Notes: generated by a model from the sequence alone, not told the origin. Counted from the first letter of the stretch, positions 9,915 to 30,818 are shown. The stretch: 31,686 nt of DNA from an uncultured Oscillospiraceae bacterium (GCA_947628975.1 CANRBW010000001.1:1-31686), one strand, 5' to 3'. Program-made: numbers and translations.

Positions 9915-9995
9915 GTCCGGCGCGGCCGGTCTCCTTTCGTCGATCCCACCCGCCCCAGGCGGGCCACACCAAATTTTTTTCAGGAGGGAACGCCC

Positions 9996-10364: not shown

Positions 10365-10398
10365 AGACCGGAGTCCTCCCCGCCGCCCCGCGGACAGA

Positions 10399-10440
10399 CA
10401 AAGCGCCCCGGCCGCCTTCTCAGGCGGCCGGGGCGCTTTT
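10399..10440. terminator. Bidirectional terminator between convergent genes
   Basis: Perfect 18-bp stem AAAGCGCCCCGGCCGCCT / AGGCGGCCGGGGCGCTTT with A and T tails. Confidence 0.85.
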
Positions 10441-10460
10441 ACTCCGTCGCGACGGTCCAA

Positions 10461-12457: not shown

Positions 12458-12736
12458 ATGAGCATGGAAAACACCGCGGCCACCGCCCACCGGGTGGTGC
12501 TGGCCGACCGGACCCGCCTGGAGATCACCGGGGTGGAGGAGGTGGAGAGCTTCGACGAGGGTGAAATTATTATGTCAACCAACCGGGGCCAGTTGGTGGT
12601 CCGGGGAGAGGGGCTGCACATCGGGACGCTGAGCCTGGAGGGCGGCGCGCTGAAGGTGGACGGGACGGTGGAGAGCCTGAGCTACGAGGACACGCCGGAG
12701 GAGCGGGTCGGGCTGCTGAGCCGCCTGTTCCGATGA
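12458..12736 (+). CDS. yabP: Sporulation protein YabP
   Basis: HRVVLADRTRLEITGVEEVESFDE...TNRGQLVVRGEGLHIGTLSLEGG...LLSRLFR; synteny yabP-yabQ-divIC-yabR. Confidence 0.93.
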   Translation: MSMENTAATAHRVVLADRTRLEITGVEEVESFDEGEIIMSTNRGQLVVRGEGLHIGTLSLEGGALKVDGTVESLSYEDTPEERVGLLSRLFR

Positions 12737-13443
12737 CGGCGGAGCAGGCCCTGGGCAATCTCCCCGCCGACCAGGCCGCCGCCTTCGGCGGGGCGCTGGC
12801 CCTGGGCTTCGGCCTGGGGGTGGGGTACGACCTGCTGCGGCTCCTGCGCCTGGGGCGGGGGAGCCGGGTGTGGGCGGCGGTGCTGGACAGCCTGTTCTGG
12901 TGCGGGGCGTGCGCCGCGGCCATGCTCTACACCGTGGCCTGCACCAGGGGCCGGGTGGAGGTGTACGCCCTGTGCGCCATGGCCCTGGGGGCGGCGGCCT
13001 ACTTCCTGCTGGCCAGCCCGCTGGTGCGGTGGGGGGAGGCCCTGCTCCTGCGCCTGGGGGAGCGGCTGTGGTGGGCGGTGACCGCCCCGCTGGTCCTGCT
13101 GGGAGGGCGGATAAAAAAATTTTGGATTTTTTTCAAAAAACGCTTTTCTTTTTGGGGAAGTTGGTTTACAATAATAAGGCAACTTGGGCCCAAGTCGGAA
13201 AAACGCGGGCGCAAAAGACGACCGGAAGGGGGGCGAGGCTGGTATGAGAGTGAAACGGGCGGGGATGCTCACCAAGCTCCTCATCCTGATCTTACTGGTC
13301 GCCACGGTGACCACCTACCTCAACCTCCGCAAGGAGCTCCGGGTCCTGTCCGACCAGCGGGTCACGCTGGAGCGGCAAAACGCGAAACAGCGCCAGGAAA
13401 ACGACGCGCTGTCCGCCGCCATCGCCCAGAAGGACGACCCTGA
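12733..13443 (+). CDS. yabQ: Spore cortex protein YabQ (3' end uncertain; as read it overlaps divIC by 200 nt)
   Basis: ATGA overlap with yabP; hydrophobic GVGYDLLRLLR...LDSLFW...GRVEVYALCAM...YFLLAS; synteny. Confidence 0.8.
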   Translation: MTAEQALGNLPADQAAAFGGALALGFGLGVGYDLLRLLRLGRGSRVWAAVLDSLFWCGACAAAMLYTVACTRGRVEVYALCAMALGAAAYFLLASPLVRWGEALLLRLGERLWWAVTAPLVLLGGRIKKFWIFFKKRFSFWGSWFTIIRQLGPKSEKRGRKRRPEGGRGWYESETGGDAHQAPHPDLTGRHGDHLPQPPQGAPGPVRPAGHAGAAKRETAPGKRRAVRRHRPEGRP

Positions 13444-13522
13444 GCGCCTCGCCGCCGTGGCGAGGGAGCGGCTGGGCTATGTGGCTCCCGGAGAGATCGT
13501 CTTTTACGACAGCGGCAACTGA
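13244..13522 (+). CDS. divIC: Septum formation initiator (DivIC/FtsB family)
   Basis: Short basic N-terminus, TM helix, coiled coil and conserved AVARERLGYVAPGEIVF; lies between yabQ and an S1 protein. Confidence 0.85.
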   Translation: MRVKRAGMLTKLLILILLVATVTTYLNLRKELRVLSDQRVTLERQNAKQRQENDALSAAIAQKDDPERLAAVARERLGYVAPGEIVFYDSGN

Positions 13523-13564
13523 CCGGGGACGAGAATTCTTGGGAGAGAGGATCAGAAAGAGCGT

Positions 13565-14008
13565 ATGGAGTTTGGAGTCGGTTCTATCGTAGAGGGCAAG
13601 GTAACGGGCATCACCAAGTTCGGGGCGTTCGTCTCCCTGCCCGGGGGAAAATCCGGATTGGTACATATTTCCGAGATCGCCTACGCCTACGTCAACGAGG
13701 TCTCCGACCACCTGAAGGTGGGCCAGGAGGTGAAGGTGAAGGTCATCGGCATCGACGAGTCCAACCGGATCAATCTTTCCATCAAAAAGGCGCTGCCGCC
13801 CCCGCCCCGCCAGAGCGGAGGCTCCTCCGGCCCCCAGGGCCGCGGCCAGAGCGCGGGCTTCACGCCCAAGCAGCCCCCCGCCCCCGCCTCCTTCGAGGAC
13901 CGGCTCAAGCAGTTCATGCAGCAGAGCGACTCCAAGCTGTCCGAGATTCGGGCCGCCGACCGCCGCAATACCCGCCGGGGCGCCGGCGGGAGGGGCCAGA
14001 GCCGATAG
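13565..14008 (+). CDS. S1 RNA-binding domain protein (YabR/YugI-like)
   Basis: VEGKVTGITKFGAFVSLPGGKSGLVHISEIA...INLSIKK, C-terminal SFEDRLKQFMQQSDSKL. Confidence 0.92.
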   Translation: MEFGVGSIVEGKVTGITKFGAFVSLPGGKSGLVHISEIAYAYVNEVSDHLKVGQEVKVKVIGIDESNRINLSIKKALPPPPRQSGGSSGPQGRGQSAGFTPKQPPAPASFEDRLKQFMQQSDSKLSEIRAADRRNTRRGAGGRGQSR

Positions 14009-14034
14009 GCTCCGGACGATTCAGAACACACACG

Positions 14035-14070
14035 AAGGGCCTGGGGCGGATCGCCGCTCCAGGCCCTTTT
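14035..14070 (+). terminator. Intrinsic terminator of the yabP-S1 operon
   Basis: AAGGGCCTGGGGCGG-ATCG-CCGCTCCAGGCCCTT followed by TT. Confidence 0.8.
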
Positions 14071-14132
14071 CTATGCGGATGGGACGGCCGGGCCGCCCCG
14101 TCCGCCGTTTTTTGGTCCGCCGCGGCCAGCGC

Positions 14133-15962
14133 CTACGGCGCGAGCCCCGCGCCGCGCAGGTCGTCGCGCACGGTGTTGCGCCGCCGCTCCTGAAGGGCCT
14201 CGATGGTGCCCGGCACCGACTCCTTCACAGAGGGGGCGGCGTCCAGGTCCCGCTCGCCCTGTTCCCGGGTAGCCGCCGCGAAGGGCGCGGTGAGCAGGGG
14301 GTTGTCCCGCCCGAACCGCTCCTGGAGGTCCCTGCGGTAGATTGCCTGCTCCCGCTCCCCCATGGGTCGGGCCTGCACGTCGCCGGGGAGGTTGTCGGCC
14401 ATATCCCGCTCCAAGTGGTGGAGCGTTTTCATGTAGGAGTACATCCGCTTCCCGCTGTCCTGGACCGCGTCCTCCCCCTGGCCCATGACGATGGCGTCGC
14501 GGTGGGAGGCGTAGGTCAACAGGGTGGGCAGCACGTTGTTGTAGTATCCAGACAGCCGCTCATACTCCTTGTCCTCCTTGTCCTCCGGGTCGAAGATCTC
14601 CGGCATCTGCTGGATCAGCTGGGCGCAGTCCTGCATCATGTTCATATCCTTGTAGAGGTCTTTGCCCCCCAGGCGGATCACGTCCTCCGGGTGCATCTGG
14701 CTGAGGGAGATGCCGTATTTGTGCTGCACGCTGCGCAGGTGGCTCAGGTAGATCTTCTTCAGCTGGCGCGCGCCCTTGTCGAAGCGCTGGTCCGCCTCTT
14801 CCACCGCCGAGCTGTCCTTAAAATCCAGGTCTTTCCGCTGGCCCGCCAGCAGGTCGTCGTACATCTCGGTGATCTGGTCGTCGTCCATGCCCATCTTCCG
14901 GCCCTCGTTCACGGCCCCGGCCATGGAGCGCAGATAGTTCAGCCCGTTGAACTGCCTGGACTGGGTGATCGCCCGGCGCTTGACGTCGGCGTCCTCCAGG
15001 TCGATCCCATCTTTCCACTGCCGGCCCGAGGCGTTGGACAGATTGGTGTCGATACTGTTGTACTCCTCATCGTTATAGCGCCGGCGGAGGGCGGTGACCA
15101 GGTCCTGGCCCTCTTCGTTGGCGTCGAGTTCCGCCTGCGTCTGGCCGCCCAGTTGGACGAGGTGGAGCATGAGGCTGACGTCGCTTCCCAGGGGGCCCTG
15201 GTCGGGGGCGACCCGCTCAGGGCTGGGCACGGGGGCGGCCGCCCTGCGCGCCTCCGCCTCCTGGCCGTACTGCTCCCGCAGCGCCCGCTTGGCCCGGCTC
15301 CTCTGGATAAAGTGGAACCGGGAGGGCAGCTCGGTGATCAGGTCGGGGCTGGAGATCAGACCCGCCTCGTCGTCCTGGCGCTGCTGGGCGCGGTTGCGCT
15401 CCAGCTGGATCTCCTCCTCGTCGCCCTTTTTGGCCTGCATCACCCCGCAGGTCACCGGGGAGACGCCGGAGCCGGAGATGGGAGTCACCGGTCCGGAGTA
15501 GACCGGCTCCCCCGCCGCGGCCATCTGGCCCTCCCGATCCGCCCTGGCCTCCAGGGCGGGATCGCGCAGCAGGCCCCTGCCGCCCCGCTCGCCCCGCGCC
15601 TGGCTCACCACGTGGGAGAGCTCGTGGCCGATCAGCTCCTGCCCGGCGGCGGAATAGGGGTCCAGCTTGCCCGGGGCGAAGGCCACGCTCTGGCCCATGG
15701 TCACGGCGTCCGCCCCCGCGTCCGCCACCGCCTGGCTCTGGTAAAAGCTCACCTGGGGGAAACCCGTCCCAAACGCCGCCTCCATCTTCTCCCGGACCGC
15801 GCCGGGCAGATCCACCCGGCTGCCCATCTGCTCCCGGCTGGGCTCGGCGGCGCCGCCGGCCAGCTCCGCGATGGAGGGGCCGGGGGCGCCGGTCTGGCCG
15901 CCGTCCCGGAGGGCCGGGGAGGGCTGGGCGGCCCGGCGGCGGTCCATATAGGTCTGCGACAT
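14133..15962 (-). CDS. DUF4157 (eCIS core) domain protein with an unrecognised helical C-terminal region
   Basis: LPGAVREKMEAAFG...ADAVTMGQSVAFAPG...GQELIGHELSHVVSQ (HExxH) followed by a VMQAKK motif. The remaining ~440 aa were not recognised. Confidence 0.85.
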   Translation of the reverse strand: MSQTYMDRRRAAQPSPALRDGGQTGAPGPSIAELAGGAAEPSREQMGSRVDLPGAVREKMEAAFGTGFPQVSFYQSQAVADAGADAVTMGQSVAFAPGKLDPYSAAGQELIGHELSHVVSQARGERGGRGLLRDPALEARADREGQMAAAGEPVYSGPVTPISGSGVSPVTCGVMQAKKGDEEEIQLERNRAQQRQDDEAGLISSPDLITELPSRFHFIQRSRAKRALREQYGQEAEARRAAAPVPSPERVAPDQGPLGSDVSLMLHLVQLGGQTQAELDANEEGQDLVTALRRRYNDEEYNSIDTNLSNASGRQWKDGIDLEDADVKRRAITQSRQFNGLNYLRSMAGAVNEGRKMGMDDDQITEMYDDLLAGQRKDLDFKDSSAVEEADQRFDKGARQLKKIYLSHLRSVQHKYGISLSQMHPEDVIRLGGKDLYKDMNMMQDCAQLIQQMPEIFDPEDKEDKEYERLSGYYNNVLPTLLTYASHRDAIVMGQGEDAVQDSGKRMYSYMKTLHHLERDMADNLPGDVQARPMGEREQAIYRRDLQERFGRDNPLLTAPFAAATREQGERDLDAAPSVKESVPGTIEALQERRRNTVRDDLRGAGLAP

Positions 15963-20335: not shown

Positions 20336-21355
20336 ATGGCAGATAAGCTGATCACCTTCGCGGTGCCCTGCTACAATTCGGCGGAGTATATGGACCACTG
20401 TATCCAGACCCTGCTCACCGGTGGGGAGGACGTGGAGATCATCCTGGTGGACGACGGCTCCACCAAGGACGACACCCCCGCCATCTGCGACCGCTACGCC
20501 CAGGACTACCCCGACGTGGTCCGGGTCATCCACCAGGACAACGGCGGCCACGGCGAGGGGGTCAACCAGGGCGTCCGCCACGCCACGGGGGCCTATTACA
20601 AGGTGGTGGACTCCGACGACTGGCTGGACGAGGCGGCGCTGGCCCAGGTGCTGGACAAGCTCCGGGAGTTCGTGGCCAAGGGCCACCCCCTGGACCTGAT
20701 GATCGCCAACTACGTCTACGAGCACGTGGCGGACCAGACCCAGAAGGTGATGGACTACAAGAACGTCTTCCCCGTGGGCCGGGTCTTCACCTGGAAGGAG
20801 GTGGGCCATTTCGGCGTGAGCCAGTACCTGCTGATGCACTCGGTGATCTACCGCACCCAGCTGCTCCGGGACTGCGGCCTGTCGCTGCCCAAGCACACCT
20901 TCTATGTGGACAACATCTTCGTCTACCAGCCCCTGCCCTTTGTCAAGACCCTCTACTACATGGACGTGGACCTCTACCGCTACTTCATCGGCCGGGCGGA
21001 CCAGTCGGTCCAGCAGGACGTGATGGTGGGCAGGGTGGACCAGCAGGTGCGGGTCACCCGCGCCATTATCGACGCCCACGACCTGGTCGCCCTGAAGGAG
21101 AAGAACCCCCGGCTGGCCAAGTATATGTTCAACTACCTTTCCATGATGATGACCATCTCCTCGGTCTTCCTCATGCTGGACGGCTCGCCGGAGAAGATGC
21201 TGGAGAAGGACGAGTTGTGGGCCTATCTGAAAAAGCGCGCCCCCAAGATCTACCGCAAGGTGAAGTACGCCTCCCTGGCCATGTGCGGCGGCTTCCCCCG
21301 GTGGGTGACGATCACCGGTTACCGTCTGGCCAGGAAGGTTTACAAGTTCAACTGA
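20336..21355 (+). CDS. Glycosyltransferase family 2
   Basis: TFAVPCYNS, ILVDDGS, NGGHGEGVN, VVDSDD (DxD), YRYFIGRADQS. Confidence 0.93.
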   Translation: MADKLITFAVPCYNSAEYMDHCIQTLLTGGEDVEIILVDDGSTKDDTPAICDRYAQDYPDVVRVIHQDNGGHGEGVNQGVRHATGAYYKVVDSDDWLDEAALAQVLDKLREFVAKGHPLDLMIANYVYEHVADQTQKVMDYKNVFPVGRVFTWKEVGHFGVSQYLLMHSVIYRTQLLRDCGLSLPKHTFYVDNIFVYQPLPFVKTLYYMDVDLYRYFIGRADQSVQQDVMVGRVDQQVRVTRAIIDAHDLVALKEKNPRLAKYMFNYLSMMMTISSVFLMLDGSPEKMLEKDELWAYLKKRAPKIYRKVKYASLAMCGGFPRWVTITGYRLARKVYKFN

Positions 21356-21359
21356 TCCC

Positions 21360-21388
21360 GCGGGCGGCGCCGGCCGCCCGCTTTTTTT
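21360..21388 (+). terminator. Intrinsic terminator of glf-GT2
   Basis: GCGGGCGGC-GCCG-GCCGCCCGC followed by T7. Confidence 0.85.
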
Positions 21389-21398
21389 GCCCGGCGAC

Positions 21399-21434
21399 AA
21401 AAAACCCGGCCCGAAGCAAAGCTCCAGACCGGGA
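21399..21434 (-). terminator. Probable original tRNA-Val terminator, displaced by the island
   Basis: Minus strand CCCGGTCTGGAGC-TTT-GCTTCGGGCCGGG followed by a T-run, immediately 3' of the duplicated tRNA end. Confidence 0.6.
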
Positions 21435-21480
21435 TTGGTGGACGATACAGGACTTGAACCTGTGACCTCCCGCACGTCAA
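21435..21480 (-). repeat. Attachment-site repeat: 3' half of tRNA-Val, anticodon loop to CCA
   Basis: 46 bp identical to 27576-27621: TTGGTGGACGATACAGGACTTGAACCTGTGACCTCCCGCACGTCAA. Confidence 0.97.
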
Positions 21481-21592
21481 CGGCGTTTTCATATTTTTTG
21501 TAATATTTTTGGCTCTTTATAGTTGTTTCTGCTCCATTCCACTTGCTTTCCAGAACTTTCTGGTGGTGGGCTGTCCGCTGTTTCCCCGCCGC

Positions 21593-21623
21593 TCTGTGGC
21601 AGGTTATGTGGTCAGAAAAGCCG
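21593..21623 (+). promoter_or_regulatory. Candidate integrase arm-type sites, left end
   Basis: TCTGTGGCAGGTTATGTGGTCAGAAAAGCCG, a degenerate direct repeat of 27479-27512. Confidence 0.5.
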
Positions 21624-21744
21624 AGCCCATCCACGGCGCGAGCCACAAACGGGCGTCGGCTTTCTCTTTTCGCCCCACCCATCACGCCCTCAGTTGATAC
21701 GCCTTATCAAAGAGACAAACTTCTATCCCCAACGTTCCTGTCTG

Positions 21745-22791
21745 TTACGCTTTGATATATCTCGCCGTCCGCGGAGGGCCGAGCCGTTTGATCGCGCCGC
21801 TTCGGACCATCTCCCCCAGCACGGCCTCCACCGTCGTGGGGCTGACGTCCGGGAGGATCTGGCAGATCTCCGCCTTGGAGAGGGGCGTCAGGCTGTTGAG
21901 GACGGTGGCCTCCACCCGGGCCTTTTTGGTGATCCGCTTCCCGCTGACCACCGCAAACCGCTTGTCCAGCTCCTGATAGCACAGATAGAGCGTGGAGAGG
22001 AAATTCTCCATAAACGGGAAGTAGCTGTTTTCGTTCGTGTCCCAGCCTTCGGAGGACTGCCGCAGGGCCTCATAGTAATAGGCTTTGTGGTGGTTGATCT
22101 GTTCCTCGAAGGACACATACTTTCCGGCGTCGTAGCCATTTTTGTAAAGGAGTAGCAGGGACAGCAGCCGGGACATTCTGCCGTTGCCATCCCGGAAGGG
22201 GTGGATGCACAGGAAATCCAGGATCACGCAGGGGATCAGCAGGAGTTGATTGACATTCGCGTCGTCCCGCGCCGCCAGGTAGGCCAGCTCCAGCTGTTCC
22301 ATGGCCTTCGGCGTGTCTGCGGCGGAAACCGGGCGGAACCGCACATGGCGGTTTCCGTCCGCGTCCACTTCCAGGATCACGTTGTCGTCCGCCTTGTACT
22401 GCCCGCCGTACTCGTAGCCCGCGAGGGACATCATGATCTCATGCAGACGGAGGATGTCGCTCTCCCGGAAGTCGATGTGGGCAAAGTCCAGGTGGATCGC
22501 ATTCAGCGCGTCCCGGTATCCGGCGATCTCCGCCTCATTATGGTTGAGCGGCGCGCTGTTCTGGTTGACGATGGCGGCGATACGCTCGTCGCTGGTGACG
22601 ATCCCCTCAATGGCGTTGGAGCTCTTGATGGACTGCACTTTGGCGACGGCCTCCAACTCCGTAAAGATTTGCGCGTATGCCCCCTTGCGGACGCCCGCCA
22701 TGGTCTTGAGCGCCGAAATATTCGCGGTCAAATTCACAAGGCCGGCCGGCAACAGCCCGTTATTCAAAAAAGAGTAATCAAACCTTCGCAT
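21745..22791 (-). CDS. Fic family protein (class II-type) with C-terminal HTH
   Basis: Canonical HPFRDGNGRMSR; N-terminal inhibitory SNAIEG (S/TxxxEG/N); C-terminal LSKAEICQILPDVSPTTVEAVLGEM. ATG 22791. Confidence 0.93.
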   Translation of the reverse strand: MRRFDYSFLNNGLLPAGLVNLTANISALKTMAGVRKGAYAQIFTELEAVAKVQSIKSSNAIEGIVTSDERIAAIVNQNSAPLNHNEAEIAGYRDALNAIHLDFAHIDFRESDILRLHEIMMSLAGYEYGGQYKADDNVILEVDADGNRHVRFRPVSAADTPKAMEQLELAYLAARDDANVNQLLLIPCVILDFLCIHPFRDGNGRMSRLLSLLLLYKNGYDAGKYVSFEEQINHHKAYYYEALRQSSEGWDTNENSYFPFMENFLSTLYLCYQELDKRFAVVSGKRITKKARVEATVLNSLTPLSKAEICQILPDVSPTTVEAVLGEMVRSGAIKRLGPPRTARYIKA

Positions 22792-22816
22792 GGACCGCCC
22801 CCCATTTCTGCACATT

Positions 22817-22845
22817 ATTATAGCCATATATATGCAGAAAGTCAA
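22817..22845 (-). promoter_or_regulatory. Near-consensus promoter of the Fic gene with flanking repeats
   Basis: Minus strand TTGACT-N17-TATAAT; TTTCTGCA(C/T)AT at 22805-22815, 22860-22870 and inverted at 22830-22840. Confidence 0.7.
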
Positions 22846-22881
22846 GCAAACCTCGGTCGTTTCTGCACATAGTTATTTCAA

Positions 22882-23412
22882 TTATATGATATCATTCCAT
22901 ACAGAAACATTTTGTACGCCAAATTGCCTGTCTCCCGCACTTACTACGGTACCGTCATAGCGCAAACCCAAGGTATTCACAGGACCTACTGCAATGGCTA
23001 CTATTCCATTCCAGTCCTCTACATCACACTGACCAACTTTATTATCCCCTGTGGCTACAACTGTTCCGTCCGAGCGTAAACCAACTGTGAATTCACTATT
23101 TGCGGCAATCGCCACAATATCTGTCCAGCCTTCCACGTTGCTTTGACCATAGTCCATCTCACTTGGCACTGAAGTCGCAATGACTGTACCATCTTTTCGT
23201 AGACCAACAACATGAGCTTCGCCTGCTGCTAAGGCAACGATATCTGTCCAGCCTGCTACTTCGCTGATATTGTAGTTAAAATAGATTTCCTCCGGGTCCT
23301 CCGTATATACCACAGTGCCGTCTGCCCGCAATCCGTAAGTATGATAGGGACTCGCACATATGTCGACAATATCCGTCCAGCCACTTACGTTACACAGGTC
23401 GAAGCGGTCGAC
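22882..23412 (-). pseudogene. 5'-truncated RCC1/BLIP-II-like repeat protein
   Basis: Four to five repeats of W[TN]DIVAIAAG..H.VGLR.DGTVVA.G.N..GQC.V. The frame stays open upstream of the called TTG (…DLCNVSGWTDIVDICASPYHTYGL) up to TGA at 23428-23430; no RBS or start was found. Confidence 0.75.
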
Positions 23413-23595
23413 TCGGGGAACGGTTTGTCAAGAGGTTTTTGCGAGATTGTCTAAATTAAATTTTTGAGCGGTGGAAAAACCGCCTAAAATCTCCTGCTTG
23501 CAGATGTCAAAAAGCGCCTTTTCAAGCGGTTTTTTCGCCTTTTCAGCCTGTTTCACGCAGACGAATAAGTTGTTTTTCCAAGTCGTAATTCATAG

Positions 23596-23826
23596 CTTGT
23601 ATCCATTAAGGACAGAACTGTAGTATATATTTCGCTTAGTGCGGAAGGCAACGGAACGAAGGAAGCTCCTTACGAAATTGATAATGCCGACAAGCTTGCC
23701 CTTTTTGCCGAATTGGTAAATACCGGATGTACAAGCATTTGCGGTAAGGTTGTTGCGGATATTGATTTTTCCGAGCATTCAAATCAAGGTGTTATGATAG
23801 GAACTCAGATAGGCTATACCGCTTAG
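23596..23826 (+). pseudogene. Fragment of a GLUG/ZmpB-type surface-protein repeat
   Basis: Manual translation between stops: ...SAEGNGTKEAPYEIDNADKLALFAELVNTGCTSICGKVVADIDFS... resembles the GxGTxxxPYxIxxAxxL...VN.G...L.ADIDL motif. No start codon. Confidence 0.55.
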
Positions 23827-23962
23827 AAATTGATACGCTATGACAAAGAATAAGGCCGCGGGCGGGGTGGCTGGACCGCCGGCGGCCTTGGTTTATGCCC
23901 TGTTCAATTTCTGTGCTGATCGCTCTACCATAACGATTTTCTGGCCCGCCCATTCCGTCCGC

Positions 23963-23991
23963 TTTACAATTCCGCACCCTGTCTGTATACT
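23963..23991 (+). promoter_or_regulatory. Sigma-A-type promoter for the DUF1653-like/HTH gene
   Basis: TTTACA-N17-TATACT, 25 nt before the ATG; RBS GGTGAGG. Confidence 0.6.
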
Positions 23992-24016
23992 AAGGGTACA
24001 GTCGGGGGGTGAGGGG

Positions 24017-24715
24017 ATGGCGGAGAGGCGGATCTGCGCCGGGTACTACAAGCGGTACGACGGCAAGGTGATCTATGTTGTCACCACGGCAAAGGACGCG
24101 GACACCGGCGAGGAAACCGTGATCTGGACGCCGTCTCTCTACGCCGACGCCCGCCAATATTTCACCATGAGCAAAAAGTCCTTCTGCGGGGATGTTGAGG
24201 TGGACGGGAAACGCCAGGCCAAGTTCAAACGGCAGACCTCTATGCGGCTCTCCGACGCCGCGGCCGAACGGTATGAGGAGGAGGGGCTTCGCGGGCCGGT
24301 GCGGAAAAGGTATTCCGCCCCGGTGGATGGATACGACGCATGGGAACAGCCCCGCCCGCGAACCTACTACGAATACGCAAAGGCCCTGTGCGAGGGCTGC
24401 CGTCTCGGCCTACGAAAGTATCAACTCTGCGTTTCAGAGAAGAAGTACATCGCGATCTCAAAAAAGGACTTCCTCGCCTTGGAGCAGGACCTCCGCTTCC
24501 TGAACACCTGCGTAAAGACGGTGCTGAAGGACTACGCCGGATATTTTGACGAGCGGTTCATCCAAGGGCTATCCATCCGCAGGTATGCCCAAGCGCACAG
24601 CCTCAACCGCGGGAGCGTGGATCACCTGCAAAGGAAGTTTTTCACGGCGCTGGCCGCCGTACTAAAGGAGCGGGATGAGGCGGAGGGGACGAGCCGCCTC
24701 CTGCCGGAGAAATAA
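24017..24715 (+). CDS. Hypothetical protein: DUF1653-like N-terminal domain and sigma-70-region-4-like HTH C-terminus
   Basis: GYYKRYDGKVIYVVTTAKDADTGEETVIW resembles DUF1653; FIQGLSIRRYAQAHSLNRGSVDHLQRK resembles an HTH. ATG 24017. Confidence 0.6.
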   Translation: MAERRICAGYYKRYDGKVIYVVTTAKDADTGEETVIWTPSLYADARQYFTMSKKSFCGDVEVDGKRQAKFKRQTSMRLSDAAAERYEEEGLRGPVRKRYSAPVDGYDAWEQPRPRTYYEYAKALCEGCRLGLRKYQLCVSEKKYIAISKKDFLALEQDLRFLNTCVKTVLKDYAGYFDERFIQGLSIRRYAQAHSLNRGSVDHLQRKFFTALAAVLKERDEAEGTSRLLPEK

Positions 24716-24727
24716 CAGAAGAAGGAG

Positions 24728-24765
24728 AAGCGAGCGTCTGCCGGCAAGGCAGGCGCTCGCTTTTT
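24728..24765 (+). terminator. Terminator between the HTH gene and the integrases
   Basis: AAGCGAGCGTCTGCC-GGCAA-GGCAGGCGCTCGCTT followed by TTT. Confidence 0.75.
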
Positions 24766-24829
24766 ATGTCAGGACTATGTCAGCCGGGAAATATATCCGG
24801 ATCAGTAGTGGGGGGAATTTTAGACTACG

Positions 24830-25982
24830 ATGGCAAAACGCAGACCCTCCGGGGACGGCATGGTCCGCAAGCGTGACGATGGCCGCTGGGAGGGGCGCAT
24901 CGTGGTAGGGCACAAGGAAAATGGCGGCCCCATCTTCCGCTACATCTACGCCGCCACCCAAAAAGAGCTGACCGCCAAGCTGCGGCAGAACATTGACGCC
25001 TACCAGGGCGTAGACCTCTCCGAGCGGAGCGGGATGACCTTTGGAGCGTGGCTGGACAGGTGGTTGGATGAGCGCATGACGGGCGCCATCCGCAGCCACA
25101 CTCTGGACGGCTACCGGCAGAGTATCAAGAACCATGTCAAGCCCTACTTGGGTCAGAAGCCGCTGGCAAAAATCACGCCAGATGATTTAAGAAACCTGTA
25201 CGATCATCTTTTGGAGCGCGGCAGGATCGGGAAGCGTTCCGGGTGCGGCCCCGGCCTTGCGCCGACCACTGTCCACGACATCCATACCATTCTCCACCAC
25301 GCGCTGAAAGCGGCGGCAGAAGAGGGCCTTCTGCCCGCCAACCCCGCGGACAAGGTGATCCCGCCCAAAGTGGCAAATCAGCCCAAGGGCATCCTGAACA
25401 ACGCCCAGCTGGATACGCTGATGGCGACCATACGCAAGGACGAACTCTGGCACGATTTCTTCTACACAGAGTTGACCACCGGCCTGCGCCGGGGAGAACT
25501 ATGCGGCCTTAGATGGGAGGACTTCGACAGCGAGACAGGAACTCTGAATGTGTGCCGTACCATCCGGGTCGGAAAGGGAGGCGCGCGAACGGCGGGAGAC
25601 ACCAAGACCTTCGCCGGGACGCGCGCCATTCTGCTTCCGCACAGTACAGCGCAACTTCTGCGGGAGAGAAAAGCCTCCGCGTTGACAGAATGGATCTTCC
25701 CCGATCCCCTCAAGCCGGAACGCCCCACCAATCCCAACAGCGCCTACCGCCAGTTGAAGAAACTTTTGGCCGAGGCGGGGCTGCCCGACATCCGCTTCCA
25801 CGATCTCCGGCACACCTTCGCCAACCCATGCCTTGGCCGGAGGAGTAGACGCCAAGACCCTCTCCGGCATCCTGGGCCACACCAAGGCCAGCTTCACGCT
25901 GGACACCTACGCCCACGTTACCGGCGATATGCAGAGGCACGCGGCAAAAATCGTGGGCGGTTTTATAGCGGACATTTTGTAG
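24830..25982 (+). pseudogene. Tyrosine integrase 1, frameshifted by an extra A at 25823-25824
   Basis: Arm-binding-like N-terminus, TGLRRGEL, DTKT, FHDLRHTF. Removing one A restores ATHALAGGVDAKTLSGILGHTKASFTLDTY...DIL* (383 aa, TAG 25980-25982). As read, it continues in frame into integrase 2 (860-aa ORF). Confidence 0.88.
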
Positions 25983-25993
25983 GAGGCGAAAGG

Positions 25994-27412
25994 ATGGCAA
26001 AACGGAAAAGCAACCGGGGCAATGGCAGCATTCATCTGCGGAAGGATGGCCGCTGGGAGGGCCGATATGTGATCGGTTATGATGAGAAGGGCCTGCCAAA
26101 GACGAAAAACGTCCTTGCCAAAACCAAGCGGGAGTGTGAGCGGAAGCTGAAAGAACTGCGCGCCAGCCTCAAGCGCGCGGAGCCGGAGCGATTCAAAGCG
26201 GACGTGACCTTCGGGGCATGGCTGGATCACTGGTATCAAACCGACTGCAAGCCCGCCATTCGTCCCAAGACCCAGGCAGACTACGAAAACCGCGTCTATC
26301 AGCATATCATCCCGGAGCTGGGCCATATCCCGCTGGCCAAACTGACCCCAGGCGACCTCCAGCAGTTCTACGTCCGGCTCAAGCGGGGAGGGCGGCTCCT
26401 TCGCGCGAAGGAGTATGGCCCCGGCCTCTCCGACCGCATGGTGAAAAGCTGTCATGTGACCTGCCGGGTGGCGCTGGACAAGGCGGTGGCCCAGGGGCTG
26501 ATCCCGAAAAATCCCGCCGCCGCCTGTAAAGCTCCGGCGACCCACCCCAGGGAGATGCAGGTGCTGACACAAGACGAGATGCGGCGTTTGCTGATCCAAG
26601 CCAAGGAGGACGGGTGCTATGAGCTCCTTCTGCTGGAGCTCTCCACCGGTCTGCGCCGCGGGGAACTGCTGGCCCTCCAGTGGGACGACCTGGACCTTGC
26701 CACCGGAGAGCTGAGGATCGAGCGGCAGGTGCAGAGGGTGAAGGGGGCGTTGACCGTCACCCAGCCCAAGACCAGGGCGTCCAGCCGAAGCGTCATCCTT
26801 CCAGCCCCAACCTTGGACGCCCTGAAGAGCTACCGGCAAAGGGTGGATTCCCGCTGGATATTTCCCTCGCCGGTCAAAAAGGACTCTCCCCTGGACCCCG
26901 CGGCGGTTCGGAAGAAGCTGTCCGTCGTTTTGGAGCGGGCGGGCTGTAAACACGTCCGTTTCCACGACCTCCGCCACACCTTTGCCACCAATGCCCTGGA
27001 ACACGGCATGGACGTGAAGACCCTGTCCGCCATCATCGGCCACGTCTCCAGCGGCACCACGCTGAACGTCTACGCCCACGTCACCGACGAGATGCGCCGG
27101 ACGGCGGCGGCAAAAATCGACCGGGCCATCGCCAAGGCAGAGCCGCGGCCGGAGACGTCAGCCCCCAAAAAGCGCACGCAAACCACATTCCAGGCGGTCA
27201 AGGGCAAATACCGCAAGCCCGGCACCGGCTATGTAAAGCAGATCAGCCCCAACTGCTGGCAGGGCCGCTACTCCCCCAAGGTCAAGGGCAAACGCCTCTC
27301 CCGCAATGTCTACGCGCCGACTGAAGCCGCGTGCGAGGCCAAGCTGGCGGAGCTCATCGGGCAGATGAAAGCTGAAATTTCCGCTGTCAGCGCCCAGGAT
27401 CACGCAAGCTGA
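25994..27412 (+). CDS. Tyrosine integrase 2 (472 aa) with extra C-terminal arm-binding-like domain
   Basis: Own RBS AGGAGG and ATG; intact R (TGLRRGE), K (QPKT), HxxR (FHDLRH), H (IGH) and Y (LNVY). Confidence 0.93.
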   Translation: MAKRKSNRGNGSIHLRKDGRWEGRYVIGYDEKGLPKTKNVLAKTKRECERKLKELRASLKRAEPERFKADVTFGAWLDHWYQTDCKPAIRPKTQADYENRVYQHIIPELGHIPLAKLTPGDLQQFYVRLKRGGRLLRAKEYGPGLSDRMVKSCHVTCRVALDKAVAQGLIPKNPAAACKAPATHPREMQVLTQDEMRRLLIQAKEDGCYELLLLELSTGLRRGELLALQWDDLDLATGELRIERQVQRVKGALTVTQPKTRASSRSVILPAPTLDALKSYRQRVDSRWIFPSPVKKDSPLDPAAVRKKLSVVLERAGCKHVRFHDLRHTFATNALEHGMDVKTLSAIIGHVSSGTTLNVYAHVTDEMRRTAAAKIDRAIAKAEPRPETSAPKKRTQTTFQAVKGKYRKPGTGYVKQISPNCWQGRYSPKVKGKRLSRNVYAPTEAACEAKLAELIGQMKAEISAVSAQDHAS

Positions 27413-27478
27413 GCGGGCCGTGGGATCCATAGAAGCGAGGTGAGGACTGGGATGTTTGATGGGCAAAGAGTTTTCCCG

Positions 27479-27512
27479 TCTGTGGCATGGTGTGTGGTCA
27501 GCTGAAAAGTCG
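27479..27512 (+). promoter_or_regulatory. Candidate integrase arm-type sites, right end
   Basis: TCTGTGGCATGGTGTGTGGTCAGCTGAAAAGTCG, a degenerate direct repeat of 21593-21623. Confidence 0.5.
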
Positions 27513-27539
27513 TGGCGGTAAAATCCGCCAAAAAGTTAA

Positions 27540-27575
27540 AAAAGTCGCCGTTTTCACAGGAAAACGGCGGCTTTT
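27540..27575 (-). terminator. Island-supplied terminator for tRNA-Val (probably bidirectional)
   Basis: Minus strand AGCCGCCGTTTTC-CTGT-GAAAACGGCGACT followed by TTTT, immediately after CCA. Confidence 0.7.
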
Positions 27576-27576
27576 T

Positions 27577-27653
27577 TGGTGGACGATACAGGACTTGAAC
27601 CTGTGACCTCCCGCACGTCAAGCGGATGCTCATACCAGCTGAGCTAATCGTCC
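27577..27653 (-). tRNA. tRNA-Val(GAC)
   Basis: 77 nt GGACGATTAGCTCAGCTGGTATGAGCATCCGCTTGACGTGCGGGAGGTCACAGGTTCAAGTCCTGTATCGTCCACCA; stem TCCGC/GCGGG, loop TTGACGT, encoded CCA. Confidence 0.96.
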
Positions 27654-27666
27654 GAACAGCTTGTAT

Positions 27667-27695
27667 AGTATACCGCGTTTCCGCCCCGCTGTCAA
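27667..27695 (-). promoter_or_regulatory. tRNA-Val promoter
   Basis: Minus strand TTGACA-N17-TATACT followed by a short leader. Confidence 0.85.
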
Positions 27696-27819
27696 GAGCC
27701 AAGCCGGGAAAAACTCCATTTCTCCATCGGGTTTCCGACGATACCGGACAGTTTTGCGGAGACTGGGGAGGAAGCGGGGGCGGCGGCGGAAAAATTTTCG
27801 GAAAAATCCGTTTTCCCTC

Positions 27820-27848
27820 TTGCAAGATAGGGGGGACTGTGATAGAAT
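27820..27848 (+). promoter_or_regulatory. tRNA-Pro promoter
   Basis: TTGCAA-N17-TAGAAT with TGn extension. Confidence 0.8.
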
Positions 27849-27882
27849 ACCCTAGTCCCTTGCGAGAGGGAGAAGTGAATAT

Positions 27883-27959
27883 CCGGGTGTGGCGAAGTTT
27901 GGTATCGCGCTTGACTGGGGGTCAAGAGGCCGTGGGTTCAAGTCCCGCCACTCGGACCA
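27883..27959 (+). tRNA. tRNA-Pro(GGG)
   Basis: 77 nt; acceptor CCGGGTG/CACTCGG, anticodon stem CTTGA/TCAAG, loop CTGGGGG, T-loop TTCAAGT, encoded CCA. Confidence 0.96.
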
Positions 27960-28004
27960 CAATATGACGTGGACATGGAGTACTCTGTGACTATGCCACC
28001 ATCG

Positions 28005-28041
28005 GAAAAACATCCCTGTTTCTAGGGATGTTTTTCATTTT
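28005..28041 (+). terminator. Terminator downstream of tRNA-Pro
   Basis: GAAAAACATCCCT-GTTTCT-AGGGATGTTTTTC followed by ATTTT. Confidence 0.75.
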
Positions 28042-28220
28042 TGTCATTTCAACCGCAGCGATACAGGGCCATGAACATAAAAATCCTGCACCAAGAACTC
28101 ACTCATCCCATCTTTGTATGGATAAAGCCCACTTGTGTGGAATTGGTGCAATTCACACGGGAAATAATTGGCGCAGAAAATAAGGGAGGCGTTTTCAATA
28201 TTTGTGAGCCTTTTGCCATG

Positions 28221-28255
28221 AAAAGGGCGGCTGGAGTCAAAACTCTAGCCGCCCT
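28221..28255 (-). terminator. Terminator of the serine recombinase operon
   Basis: Minus strand AGGGCGGCTAGAG-TTTTGA-CTCCAGCCGCCCT followed by TTT. Confidence 0.7.
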
Positions 28256-28272
28256 GCGCCGATATTTAGATG

Positions 28273-29565
28273 TTAGATCGGCACCGTTACCTCGCGTCCA
28301 TCCGTTAGGAGGTATGATGCTTGCCTTCCGTTTTGGATTGTTACGCTCTCAATCATCTCGCGCCAGAGGGTGTCAGAGAACTCTGTCTCCGGTTGCCCCA
28401 GTTGTTTCAACGCATTCAAAAAGCTTGCTTTGATCTCGTCTTCGCGGAGCGTAGGAGTCTTGCACTGGCTTTCACTATTATAACGATGATTACAATACCA
28501 TACATCGTAGCGGTTTCGGTTTTTGCCTCCGCTACGCCAGACCTTATGCCCGTAGAAGGCCCCACAATCGGCGCAGACGAGCCGGTTCGCAAAGGGGCTA
28601 TCCATGCCCGCCTTCTTCGGACGGGCGCTACGTCGGCGCGATAATTCGCGCTGGACGCGCTCGTAGACATCAGGAGCGATAATAGGCTCGTGGGAATTGG
28701 TAACCATATAGCGGATTTTTTCGCCCGTATTTTTACGTACTTTTTTGCTCAAATAGTCTACTGTATATGTTTTCTGAAGAATGGCATCGCCCTTGTACTT
28801 CTCATTTCTTAAAATACTGTTTACCGTGCTTATTCTCCATTTAGTTTTGCCACCAGGAGTAGGAATACCACGAGCGGTCAAATCTTCGGCAATCTGGCTG
28901 ATGCTCTTCCCGGCAAGGAAGTCTTCGTAGATCCCTCTCACAATTTTTGCCTCTTCTTCTACAATTTCAGGGCGTCCATCTGGCCCTTTGCAATACCCCA
29001 GAAAGTGAGAGTAGGCCAGCGAAACTTTCCCGTCCTGCATGCTCTTCTGTTTGCCCCAGCGAACATTTTCGGAGATAGAGCGGCTTTCCTCCTGGGCAAG
29101 ACTGCTCATGATTGTGAGCATAACCTCACACTTGGGATCGAGGGTATGGATGTTTTCTTTCTCAAAGTACACCTCTACATCCTTTTCCTTTAGATCACGC
29201 ACTGTTTGGAGTGTATCTACCGTATTACGGGCAAACCGGGAGATGGATTTCGTTAGGATCAGGTCGATGCCGCCGTTCAGTGCCAGCGCAATCATTTTGT
29301 TGAAACCGTCGCGCTTTTTGGTATTTGTGCCGCTAATGCCCTCATCCGCGAACACGCCCACAAATTCCCAACTCGGATTATTCTGGATGTAGTTGGTATA
29401 GTACTTTACTTGCGCCTCATAACTGCTCTGTTGCTCATCCTGCTCAGTAGAAACCCGCGCATAGGCTGCTACCCGCAGCTTTACAGGCTCCAGATTTTGC
29501 TCCTGCTCAATCAAAACCCGTACAGGTTGGATGATTTTTACGTTCGGTGCCAGATTTGTGTTCAT
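28273..29565 (-). CDS. Large serine recombinase (catalytic, recombinase and Zn-ribbon domains), 430 aa
   Basis: RVAAYARVST (catalytic Ser), FADEGISGT, KSISRFARNT, SLAQEESRSISEN, ILRNEKYKGD, CADCG...WYC. ATG 29565 overlaps the upstream stop (ATGA); RBS GAAGGAGG. Confidence 0.93.
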   Translation of the reverse strand: MNTNLAPNVKIIQPVRVLIEQEQNLEPVKLRVAAYARVSTEQDEQQSSYEAQVKYYTNYIQNNPSWEFVGVFADEGISGTNTKKRDGFNKMIALALNGGIDLILTKSISRFARNTVDTLQTVRDLKEKDVEVYFEKENIHTLDPKCEVMLTIMSSLAQEESRSISENVRWGKQKSMQDGKVSLAYSHFLGYCKGPDGRPEIVEEEAKIVRGIYEDFLAGKSISQIAEDLTARGIPTPGGKTKWRISTVNSILRNEKYKGDAILQKTYTVDYLSKKVRKNTGEKIRYMVTNSHEPIIAPDVYERVQRELSRRRSARPKKAGMDSPFANRLVCADCGAFYGHKVWRSGGKNRNRYDVWYCNHRYNSESQCKTPTLREDEIKASFLNALKQLGQPETEFSDTLWREMIESVTIQNGRQASYLLTDGREVTVPI

Positions 29566-30180
29566 TCGTTGCCCTCCTTTCGATGATGTTTCAACGCATA
29601 CTCTCGCGCCACTTGGCGCATTTCCGGTGTCCATCTCTCGCTGCGGGAGCGGTGCTGCCATTCAATTTCTCTTATCGTTCCATCCTTAAAATGGTAGGCC
29701 AAATGATTGCGCCCCGGTACAATGATCCCATTCAACCTTTCCAATATCACTTCGCGTGTTAGCGTATCAGTGGCGAGGATTTCCTGGGTTTTCTCAATCA
29801 AGATCTTCTCTGGGACCGCTTGCGCTGGGCATACCGCTTTACCCAGTTCATCATATCTTCGGCACGTCCATATAAAGTGACGGTACTTGCCCGAACCGTT
29901 ATTGCGGCGGCAGTAAGCACTACCGCATAACCCGCATTTGACCAGCCCCGTAAATAATTTGGGCTCACTCCTAGCAGGCTGGTTATTCTTTTCTCCTTTG
30001 CGACACAGTTTTTGCTGTACACGGTTAAACTCATCAAGGCCAATAATCGCCTCATGACTGTTCGTGACTTCATATTTAGGCACCTGTCCATGATTCACAA
30101 TTTGCCGCTTAGTGCGAAAATCCGGGCAGTACGTCTTTTGCAAGATCATACTCCCGGTGTATTTTTCATTCTTCAATATA
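29562..30180 (-). pseudogene. 5'-truncated large serine recombinase (catalytic domain lost)
   Basis: ILKNEKYTGSMILQK...NSHEAII...FTGLVKCGLCG...WTC...C. Sequence upstream of ~30180 belongs to the WG-repeat gene. Confidence 0.88.
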
Positions 30181-30456
30181 GCCGTACTTGTCCTCCATCC
30201 GCACCGCGGCCAGACCCTCGGAGAAGTCGGCGGCCTCGGCATACTGGCGGGGGGTGACCACATTGCCGGCTTTGTCCATGTAGCCCCAATTGTCGTCCCG
30301 CATCACTGCGACCAGGCCCTCGGAGAAGCCGGAAACCTCGAAAAACTGGCATGGGACGACCTCGGTGACGGTGATCCCCGCCGCCAGCGCCGCGGTGGGC
30401 AGCAGGGCGCACCCCAGCGCCACCGCAAGGGTCAGGGCCAAAAGTCTTTTTTTCAT
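30166..30456 (-). pseudogene. 3'-truncated secreted WG-repeat protein
   Basis: RBS AAAGGAGG; signal peptide MKKRLLALTLAVALGCALLPTAALA; FSEGLVAV...WGYMDKAG and FSEGLAAV...YGYI repeats, then an abrupt stop after entering recombinase DNA. Confidence 0.85.
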
Positions 30457-30485
30457 GTTTTTTCCTCCTTTGAATTTTTTCCAAC

Positions 30486-30647
30486 AAAAAAAGCGCACGG
30501 CATAGAGCCATGCGCCGAAAAACGCCGGTCTCCATGCCGCCAAGCAACCAATCTCTCACATGGCAAAGCCACAAGAAATCAGTGAAGACCACGTTTTTAC
30601 CAAAAAAACGTGCTCCACCATGTGAGAGTGATATTTAGTTGCTTGGC
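30486..30647 (-). ncRNA. Candidate structured 5' leader/attenuator RNA
   Basis: Nested perfect stems of 10, 11 and 9 bp, plus a terminator with U7 and an overlapping alternative helix; begins ~7 nt after a TGn-TATAAT. Confidence 0.55.
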
Positions 30648-30653
30648 AAAGGT

Positions 30654-30682
30654 ATTATATCACAGCAACGGCGGAAAAGAAA
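30654..30682 (-). promoter_or_regulatory. Extended -10 promoter for the leader and WG gene
   Basis: Minus strand TGA-TATAAT (30659-30654); weak -35 TTTCTT at 17 nt. Confidence 0.55.
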
Positions 30683-30764
30683 CCCCTTTCCCGCAAAAAA
30701 ACCGGTGGGCCGGGGGAGCTTGCGGGGGCCTTTCAAACGCGGACGTCTGTCGTTTGGACGAGAA

Positions 30765-30796
30765 AGATCCCTGAAGCCTTGCGGCTTCAGGGATCT
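30765..30796 (-). terminator. Terminator of the SLH gene
   Basis: AGATCCCTGAAGCC-GCAA-GGCTTCAGGGATCT followed by TTC on the minus strand. Confidence 0.75.
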
Positions 30797-30818
30797 GCTC
30801 TGCCCGTTTTCGGGGGGC

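Follow-up and report, generated by a model that had tools for sequence, protein, structure and literature searches.

A 6.1-kb insert in a tRNA-Val gene of an uncultured Oscillospiraceae bacterium is probably the remnant of a mobilizable element with paired integrases

The 6,141-bp insert in the tRNA-Val(GAC) gene of an uncultured Oscillospiraceae bacterium is very likely a decayed copy of an integrative mobilizable element (IME) that is common in gut Oscillospiraceae and whose fuller form is about 14 kb long. The insert lies in a stretch of 31,686 nucleotides (GCA_947628975.1, CANRBW010000001.1:1-31686), which we call the window; by this we mean the whole stretch of DNA that was analysed, and all coordinates refer to it. 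A preliminary description of this DNA had proposed a minimal class of integrative element, consisting of an HTH gene and two integrase genes (int1 and int2). We found instead that the insert is an ordinary remnant and not a new class of minimal element, and that the window copy is most likely unable to excise efficiently or to be mobilized on its own. Any novelty would be at the level of the family to which the insert belongs.

The insert is bounded by exact direct repeats of 46 bp (21435-21480 and 27576-27621, both on the minus strand) that correspond to the 3' half of tRNA-Val(GAC), and its length is the start-to-start spacing of these repeats. The whole 1.67-Mb assembly contains just two copies of the repeat, both at the ends of the insert. 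At the integrase-proximal att junction (27576-27621), a tRNA 3' half brought in by the element completes the reconstituted tRNA-Val(GAC) (27577-27653, minus strand; identified by ARAGORN, 64.8 bits with Rfam), and the promoter of this gene has been retained (27695-27667, minus strand; 11/12 match in a promoter scan). The distal att junction (21435-21480) is the displaced copy of the 3' half. Each copy of the repeat is followed by its own minus-strand terminator: beside the displaced fragment is the original chromosomal terminator of tRNA-Val (21433-21405; a 13-pair stem and a T-run in a terminator scan), while the same scan found a hairpin supplied by the element (27569-27546) in the gap that separates int2 from the 3' end of the reconstituted gene. 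In three genomes from the same genus, the terminator is directly at the 3' end of tRNA-Val and there is neither an integrase nor an insert, so these are empty sites; a hairpin at the position matching 21405-21433 is present there as well. Together, the repeats, their spacing, and the empty sites confirm that this is an element integrated in tRNA-Val(GAC), as first described. With the left flank of the window as a guide, we found no empty site. Because the glycosyltransferase gene in that flank adjoins no tRNA in the congeners, the empty sites were read from the tRNA-Val side.

The repeat extends from one base beyond the encoded CCA to tRNA position 33, where the 7-nt anticodon loop (UUGACGU) begins. 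Thus, the identity ends exactly at the 5' boundary between stem and loop, and the repeats do end at the anticodon loop, as had been claimed. A class of integrase target sites at the tRNA anticodon loop was reportedly described by Williams in Nucleic Acids Research in 2002. As in that class, the repeats are identical over the part of the tRNA between its anticodon loop and its 3' end, the integrase gene adjoins the restored tRNA, and a symmetric anticodon stem surrounds the 7-nt putative crossover segment; the difference is that the crossover position here is deduced from where the identity ends. The identity of the two repeats had also been taken as a sign of recent or maintained activity. However, relatives in several other genera share the 45-nt core of the repeat with 0 mismatches, so identical repeats are weak evidence of activity. 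A 23-mer near the left end (21593-21615, plus strand) recurs near the right end (27479-27501, plus strand), and these are candidate arm-type sites; the pattern matches only these two places and had 0 matches in 100 shuffles. In the contigs of four metagenome runs over 20900-28300, we saw neither a joint of 21480 to 27621 nor a circle junction, which at the level of contigs is uninformative about the absence of excision.

By Pfam, there are no relaxase, replication, T4SS, or phage genes in the 6.1-kb insert, in agreement with the preliminary description, so the insert has no transfer genes of its own. The genes that had been listed as intact were the two integrases, a DUF1653/HTH gene, and a Fic gene. 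We agree on int2, Fic, and DUF1653, but int1 is frameshifted, the HTH label is unsupported, and a truncated RCC1-repeat ORF (22882-23331, minus strand; Pfam RCC1_2) is present as well. The Fic-domain cargo gene (21745-22845, minus strand; 366 aa; Pfam Fic, E = 1.4e-13) has, as read from its translation, kept its HPFRDGNGRMSR motif intact and carries the inhibitory motif SNAIEG in its N-terminal part. The DUF1653-domain ORF (23840-24715, plus strand; Pfam, E = 7e-6) has no Pfam support for an HTH, and its C-terminal 160 amino acids match nothing at E ≤ 1. DUF6809, a small gene that is usually found upstream of int1, was undetected in the window at E = 1e-6.

The first integrase gene, int1 (24830-25979, plus strand), is disrupted; the tyrosine integrase that it encodes starts with an arm-binding-type motif. 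A single A is inserted at 25823, immediately after HDLRHTFA, and the encoded Int1 ends before the catalytic histidine (III) and tyrosine, which lie in the +1 frame beyond this position. The frameshifted gene reads on into int2 to give an 860-aa ORF. Because the 52 residues past the frameshift are still 100% identical to Int1 of a relative (L088, described below), an error in sequencing or assembly may account for the frameshift; the extra A is absent from related contigs in three metagenome runs. In contrast, int2 (25994-27412, plus strand; identified with Pfam) is an intact tyrosine integrase of 472 aa, compared to 470-477 aa for its full-length relatives, with the catalytic R, K, HxxR, H, and Y all present and the catalytic columns conserved. 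The C-terminal extension of Int2 (27146-27409, plus strand) is a second copy of the arm-binding-type domain, as the N- and C-terminal profiles match each other in hhalign (probability 98.2%, E = 5e-14).

L088, an element of 14,272 bp in a congeneric MAG from rabbit gut, is flanked by the same repeats. By blastn, the window insert and L088 share three collinear blocks with 95.4-96.1% identity. One block (21435-22888, 95.5% identical at the DNA level) includes the Fic gene, which has an ORF of equal length in L088, and another (23810-24831, 95.4% identical) includes the DUF1653 ORF, an accessory gene common to both. The sizes balance exactly: 14,272 - 4,205 - 4,847 + 921 = 6,141. At the deletion junction (24830/24831), 4,205 bp of the L088-type element are missing. 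The missing DNA encodes an HTH_17/Phage_AlpA protein (Xis-type), an HTH_36 protein, a small ORF, a MobL/MobP3 relaxase (155 bits with Pfam MobL and 319 bits with NCBIfam MobP3 for the L088 protein), and HicB. The junction has a 2-bp microhomology (AT), its right breakpoint is the start codon of int1 (ATG), and the deletion takes away the ribosome-binding site of int1. Furthermore, the 4,847 bp of type I restriction-modification (R-M) cargo in L088 have been swapped for a 921-bp low-GC scrap (22889-23809; 42-47% GC; delimited by the blastn blocks and the GC profile), and contigs from three metagenome runs bridge the 22888/22889 junction. Neither element has T4SS genes, and by Pfam neither has phage genes for structure, packaging, or replication. 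In the flanking glycosyltransferase gene, the identity to the L088 host is 86% and that to other congeners 78-85%, whereas the DNA of the element is 95-96% identical between the two hosts. This implies that the element moved after the species split.

These comparisons suggest how the intact members work. A tRNA gene would be entered by tyrosine recombination, and the element would supply a replacement 3' half for it that starts at the anticodon loop and includes the CCA. The backbone of these elements consists of an HTH_17/AlpA-type (Xis-like) gene, HTH_36, the small ORF, the MobL/MobP3 relaxase, variable cargo, int1, and int2, with the integrase pair at the tRNA-side end. Int1 and Int2 probably act jointly on the att sites, the HTH_17 protein would steer excision as a directionality factor, and the relaxase would allow the excised circle to hitchhike on a co-resident conjugative element. 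In the window copy, an internal 4.2-kb deletion would have removed the Xis-like gene, HTH_36, the relaxase (and presumably oriT), and HicB; a separate event would have replaced the type I R-M cargo with the 0.9-kb scrap; and the 1-nt insertion would have truncated Int1. What is left is the two att junctions, the candidate arm sites, an intact Int2, and the Fic and DUF1653 genes. Since Int2 and both att junctions are intact, excision by trans-complementation or by Int2 alone may be possible.

Compared to the usual definitions, the window copy has its own integrase and bounding att sites (46-bp repeats, intact int2, and empty sites, with int1 broken) and lacks T4SS genes, as an IME would, but there is no relaxase in its 6.1 kb. 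It is collinear with a fuller element minus transfer or recombination genes (the L088 blocks and the int1 frameshift), which is what defines an IME remnant. A CIME keeps its att sites and has lost all genes for integration and transfer; as one integrase is still intact, the window copy is not a strict CIME. As yet another decaying island in a tRNA hotspot, the tRNA-Val locus by itself changes little.

We consider it unlikely that the strain truly has a full L088-type element and that both the junction and the extra base were created by contig collapse or strain mixing. With 235 contigs and a completeness of 89%, the MAG is fragmented, and the 24830/24831 junction and the insertion at 25823 were seen in one MAG contig only: among the listed contigs of the four metagenome runs, no independent contig of the window's strain bridges either position. 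Also, contigs from same-habitat variants, which are 95-97% similar and lack the extra A, part from the window exactly at 24830, and the glycosyltransferase, tRNA-Val, and tRNA-Pro genes that are neighbours on the window contig are unlinked in congeners. However, we found no second copy of the family's int1, relaxase, or HTH_36 in this MAG, nor pieces of MobL, HTH_36, or HicB binned elsewhere in it, and one metagenome run (X3) matches the window at 100% identity in eight separate pieces, one of which spans 22888/22889. Moreover, collapse by k-mer graph assemblers is not known to yield junctions with only 2 bp of shared sequence.

The preferred reading, a decayed IME, is also consistent with what we found at 80 related genome loci. 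There, larger mobilizable islands have int1 and int2 as a fixed pair at one end: of 71 informative cases, 67 have an intact int1 immediately upstream of int2. Int1 has about 383 aa and Int2 about 472 aa, the gap is 12-23 nt, and the pair adjoins the target tRNA; the pair in the window conforms except for the frameshift in int1. For the counts of the HTH genes and MobL, we used the 40 loci with at least 7 kb of upstream sequence. HTH_17 and HTH_36 are each present at 32 of these 40 loci, and both are absent from the window. The search that the preliminary description had suggested, for HTH-int1-int2 modules and their target tRNAs, did recover the pair, the two HTH genes, and targets (tRNA-Val, Thr, Pro, Met, or Ala, according to the integrase clade), but the modules are ends of larger islands. 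The idea that the DUF1653/HTH gene is part of the module fails, as this gene is found at 1 of the 80 loci and the conserved HTH genes are those that were lost.

It is quite unlikely that the insert is an integrative element of truly minimal design, kept in this form with integrases, a small regulator, and cargo, and wholly dependent on helpers for control of excision and for transfer. In favour of this view, the att junctions at both ends are intact, as are int2 and the candidate arm sites, and relaxase-free integrative elements have been reported in Faecalibacterium (PMC12084326). Furthermore, MobL is present at 17 of the 40 loci, and at the other 23 no MobL could be recognised within 8 kb, so the lack of a relaxase may be the normal state in part of the family and not decay; some of these loci (such as L029, L041, and L054) have the order HTH_17, HTH_36, small ORF, (DUF6809), int1, int2 with no relaxase. 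But the window lacks exactly the conserved HTH_17 and HTH_36 genes. The position of the junction on the start codon of int1, the loss of its ribosome-binding site, the frameshift, the rarity of the DUF1653 gene, and the 14.3-kb form in a congener all argue against a minimal element, and we found the 6.1-kb architecture in no other genome or record searched. The preliminary description would be refuted, by its own account, if the module were the end of a known larger ICE or prophage family reduced by deletion, and this is in substance what L088 reveals. A second, independent reduced copy (L034) has 6,046 bp, with int1 mostly deleted, between 45-bp repeats that end at anticodon-loop position 32 of tRNA-Thr; these two 6-kb reductions suggest that mobilizable islands lose transfer genes fast. 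Another locus without MobL (L060), with HTH_17, HTH_36, int1, and int2, appears to be compact, but has only a weak 29-nt repeat, 86% identical, 7.9 kb apart.

Integration at tRNA anticodon loops, and an integrase at the end of the element, are typical of temperate phages and their satellites as well, but a remnant of a prophage or phage satellite is very improbable, as the window element has no phage genes and the 14.3-kb relative has none either and carries a relaxase, while other relatives carry relaxase, toxin-antitoxin (TA), and R-M genes.

A decayed IME fits with what is known of Firmicutes: IMEs that were reduced to remnants when genes for transfer or recombination were deleted are described as common in this phylum, Oscillospiraceae included (PMC12084326, PMC5704250). 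Like the IMEs, remnants, and CIMEs of Firmicutes (Guedon et al. 2017, PMC5704250; the Faecalibacterium survey of 2025, PMC12084326), these islands are flanked by direct repeats and integrate site-specifically in the 3' part of a tRNA gene, have the integration module at one end, decay by internal deletion, and undergo tandem accretion (L088 and An100); the full-length relatives have a relaxase without a T4SS, along with R-M, TA, and Fic-type cargo. They differ in that MobL/MobP3 is outside the four relaxase superfamilies listed for Faecalibacterium (PMC12084326) and in that the integration module is a fixed pair and not a single integrase. IME_Rho_tet is unrelated to these islands; its recombinase is of the serine type.

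Among paired recombinases, Tn554 has two adjacent tyrosine recombinase genes (TnpA and TnpB), the second of which is longer, and both are needed for transposition; it is not known to make a tRNA-restoring repeat. We liken the pair to these by description, and it is also by description that we set it apart: Int1 and Int2 both start with an arm-binding-type motif, which, along with the 46-bp repeat, argues against membership in a Tn554-like group. TnpA is classed among the simple YRs, without an arm-binding domain (PMC8138268). The "Tyr duo" IMEs MTnPi1-3 of Prevotella intermedia (PMC5704250; Naito et al., PMC4755523) are mobilizable and have two distantly related tyrosine recombinases in tandem; they are from another phylum, and the likeness to our islands is by description only.

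Int1 and Int2 share with the integrases of Tn916/Tn1549 and lambda the domain order of arm-binding, core-binding (SAM-like), and catalytic domains; the catalytic region has a match in the Tn1549 integrase (6emy, E = 4e-11) and the central part has one in lambda Int. They differ in being paired and in that Int2 has a second arm-binding-type domain after the catalytic tyrosine. Across the 80 loci, the islands use an obligate-looking pair of catalytically complete tyrosine integrases. We tentatively suggest, as a possibility that we would not yet bet on, that a heteromeric recombinase with three arm domains (Int1 plus Int2 with its duplicated C-terminal domain), whose clades were retargeted among tRNA anticodon loops, is a new variant of integrase architecture. 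In the literature searched, we found no description of such a recombinase or of the Oscillospiraceae paired-integrase/MobL family. The family appears to depend on the integrase pair, and its interest lies in this pair and in the duplicated arm-binding domain of Int2. Because clades have switched tRNA targets, the family is also a natural system for studying the evolution of integrase specificity. It is abundant in Clostridia from animal and human guts, with defence (type I R-M), TA, and Fic cargo. The exact Int2 sequence was found in no other record, but over 7,900 relatives of Int2 are present in databases (E ≤ 0.001), for the most part in gut metagenomes, and the closest other int2 (97% identity) is preceded by HicB and an intact int1.

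The 6,141-bp insert in tRNA-Val(GAC) is a decayed integrative mobilizable element (IME), which is an already known kind of element. The preliminary description was largely right in what it observed, but its interpretation was right only in part: it read the locus as a naturally compact class of integrase module, and comparison with relatives instead reveals a larger element with an internal deletion.

The direct repeats (found with a repeat finder) start at 21435 and 27576, 6,141 bp apart; their initial 46 bases match exactly and then just 7 of 13 do. The MAG (1.67 Mb, 235 contigs; the window is its contig C1) contains no further copy. On the strand of the tRNA (27577-27653, minus strand; ARAGORN and Rfam), the repeat runs from one base past the encoded CCA to position 33, where the 7-nt anticodon loop UUGACGU begins. 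Thus, the identity does stop exactly at the anticodon loop, as had been proposed. Three same-genus genomes (L102, L104, and L105) have empty tRNA-Val sites, with a terminator abutting the 3' end and no integrase, so the 6.1 kb has genuinely been inserted. The insert has a GC content of 57%, lower than that of the left flank (69%) and of the genome (67%). Each repeat copy has its own terminator hairpin (21433-21405 for the copy at 21435 and 27569-27546 for the copy at 27576), and the near-consensus tRNA-Val promoter is still present. One and the same 23-mer occurs close to each end of the element. A further same-genus genome contains the tRNA-Val 3' half as a solitary 45-nt copy without mismatches (G005:C4:55306-55350), which suggests that another site in the genus is or once was occupied.

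Within the element, Pfam identifies a Fic gene (21745-22845, minus strand), a truncated RCC1-repeat ORF (22882-23331, minus strand), a DUF1653 ORF (23840-24715) whose C-terminal 160 residues matched no Pfam family at E ≤ 1, and an 860-aa ORF holding two integrase units (24830-27412). Both integrases had been described as intact-looking. This is true of int2 (25994-27412; 472 aa), but the frame of int1 turns to nonsense past HDLRHTFA, and the rest of its active site (GHT...YAH) lies in the +1 frame. When aligned to a relative, int1 has one extra A, at 25823, and this base is missing from related contigs in three metagenome runs. The 860-aa ORF is an artefact of the frameshift. The 52 residues that follow the shift still match those of the relative without exception, so the extra A is either an error or very recent. 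(Elsewhere in this genome, an unrelated small module lies on contig C18 at 9457-11376: a lone tyrosine integrase with 41% identity to Int2 and, behind it, a Fic-like gene with 25% identity to the window's Fic.)

The most informative relative is L088, from a rabbit-gut Oscillospiraceae MAG of the same genus, whose Int2 is 99% identical to the window's and whose repeat core copies lie 14,272 bp apart. By blastn, the two elements share three collinear blocks: window 21435-22888 with L088 1014-2467 (95.5% identity), 23810-24831 with 7315-8334 (95.4%), and 24830-27724 with 12540-15434 (96.1%). Absent from the window are 4,205 bp that encode HTH_17/Phage_AlpA, an HTH_36 winged-helix protein, a small ORF, a 636-aa relaxase (Pfam MobL, 155 bits; NCBIfam MobP3, 319 bits against a cut-off of 150), and HicB. 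The deletion junction (24830/24831) has 2 bp of microhomology, and its right edge is the start codon of int1, so the GAGGAG ribosome-binding site of int1 is also gone. The cargo differs as well: in the window, a 921-bp scrap (42-47% GC) with an RCC1 fragment occupies the place that in L088 is taken by HsdS, HsdM, and two unknown ORFs. The size balance is exact (14,272 - 4,205 - 4,847 + 921 = 6,141). The swap junction (22888/22889) is bridged by contigs from three runs. Element DNA is 95-96% identical between the two hosts, while the flanking glycosyltransferase is about 86% identical and other congeners are at 78-85%, which implies that the element moved after the species split.

Two further observations concern these loci. 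About 250 bp of the scrap (23370-23616) has a summed contig depth of 400-850x in four rabbit or animal gut metagenomes, with surroundings at about 5-30x, and probably represents a repeat or part of some very common mobile sequence. L088 also carries, to the left of its 14.3-kb element, a 732-bp remnant (328-1059) with another int2 3' end and att copy. This remnant has 94% identity to window 26891-27621 and suggests that elements accreted in tandem, and decayed, at the same tRNA-Val.

Reduction is not confined to the window. In Allofournierella massiliensis An912 (L034), a 45-bp tRNA-Thr repeat, likewise reaching just to the first base of the anticodon loop, encloses 6,046 bp; inside lie int2, an int1 reduced to its last fifth, and cargo (MarR, DUF308, and a symporter). 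Internal loss has therefore cut elements down to about 6 kb more than once, and the compact copies observed are products of decay. The window element matches published accounts of Firmicutes IMEs and of their remnants (PMC5704250, PMC12084326).

In the window copy, Int1 is truncated, the Xis-like gene and the relaxase are absent, and oriT is probably gone too; the MAG (89% complete) contains no second copy of these genes. Hence, the element is most likely immobile. The deletion junction and the int1 frameshift are known from one MAG contig: in metagenome run X3, eight short pieces were 100% identical to the window, none of them over 24830 or 25823. Also, with regard to window 21355-21435 and 27725-27880, the glycosyltransferase, tRNA-Val, and tRNA-Pro are on separate contigs in same-genus genomes, and the sequence that follows the glycosyltransferase in congeners lies on contig C7 of the window's MAG. 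This points either to a hotspot of rearrangement or to a chimeric assembly. Immediately past tRNA-Pro(GGG) (27883-27959; ARAGORN and Rfam), within window 27883-30800, a block of 47-50% GC encodes a large serine recombinase (28273-29661, minus strand; Resolvase, Recombinase, and Zn_ribbon_recom) and a second recombinase-like fragment (29679-30197, minus strand), and is probably another integrated element beside the tRNA pair.

The integrase pair at the level of the family, rather than the window locus itself, is the part worth following. IMEs with two tyrosine recombinases in tandem are known from Prevotella (MTnPi1-3; PMC5704250), and we found no paper describing the Oscillospiraceae family in the literature searched. 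A database search gave more than 7,900 relatives of Int2 at E ≤ 0.001, of which the best 120 are 73-97% identical, almost all 465-477 aa, and mainly from gut metagenomes. The closest after L088 (97%, among the matches listed) is preceded by HicB and an intact int1. The 6.1-kb form was not found elsewhere among these 120, in the 80 loci described below, or by a search for the exact Int2 sequence. Around six relatives, the recurrent gene order is DUF6076 (minus strand), HTH_17, HTH_36, small ORF, MobL relaxase, cargo, DUF6809, int1 (383-402 aa), and int2, with Fic, ParE/RelB, zeta/epsilon, or type I R-M as the variable cargo.

We tabulated 80 loci from species-representative genomes (Oscillibacter, Flavonifractor, Pseudoflavonifractor, Flintibacter, Faecousia, Allofournierella, and others). 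The int1-int2 pair does recur at tRNAs, but as part of larger mobilizable islands. An intact int1 directly precedes int2 in 67 of the 71 informative loci. Where at least 7 kb upstream was available (40 loci), HTH_17 and HTH_36 were each present in 32 and MobL in 17. MobL is missing within 8 kb in a sizeable part of the family; these members are either decayed or a relaxase-free sublineage. The target tRNA tracks the integrase clade: loci at least 72% identical to the window's Int2 have tRNA-Val(GAC) 170-220 bp away, the clade at 62-66% identity targets tRNA-Thr(GGT), and more distant loci have tRNA-Pro, Met, or Ala, or no tRNA.

The R-K-HxxR-H-Y set is complete in at least 95% of 67 Int1 and 70 Int2 sequences, the divergences of the two proteins correlate (r = 0.86), and the genes are 12-23 nt apart. 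The tail of about 85 aa with which Int2 continues beyond its catalytic Tyr (27146-27409) duplicates the N-terminal arm-binding-type domain (hhalign probability 98.2%, E = 5e-14, 34% identity over 59 columns; alignments A3 and A4), and this duplicated domain is conserved in 29 diverse family members. We propose that Int1 and Int2 would recombine jointly, with crossover in the anticodon loop and the stem halves as core sites; that the HTH_17 protein would be the directionality factor; and that the relaxase would nick a nearby oriT, so that a co-resident conjugative element could mobilize the excised circle.

Family elements also occur in stacks. Flavonifractor sp. An100 (NZ_NFMA01000027.1; L016 and L024) has two in tandem at tRNA-Val, divided by a fragment of the tRNA 3' half (L016 5376-5420); the tRNA-proximal one is about 17.6 kb with type I R-M and Fic as cargo. 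In Oscillibacter (L012 5678-11404, and L011), two int1-int2 pairs of different clades, with Int2s 54% and 76% identical to the window's, lie back to back about 300 bp apart and adjoin tRNA-Val. These may be a stack of elements cut down to their integrase modules.
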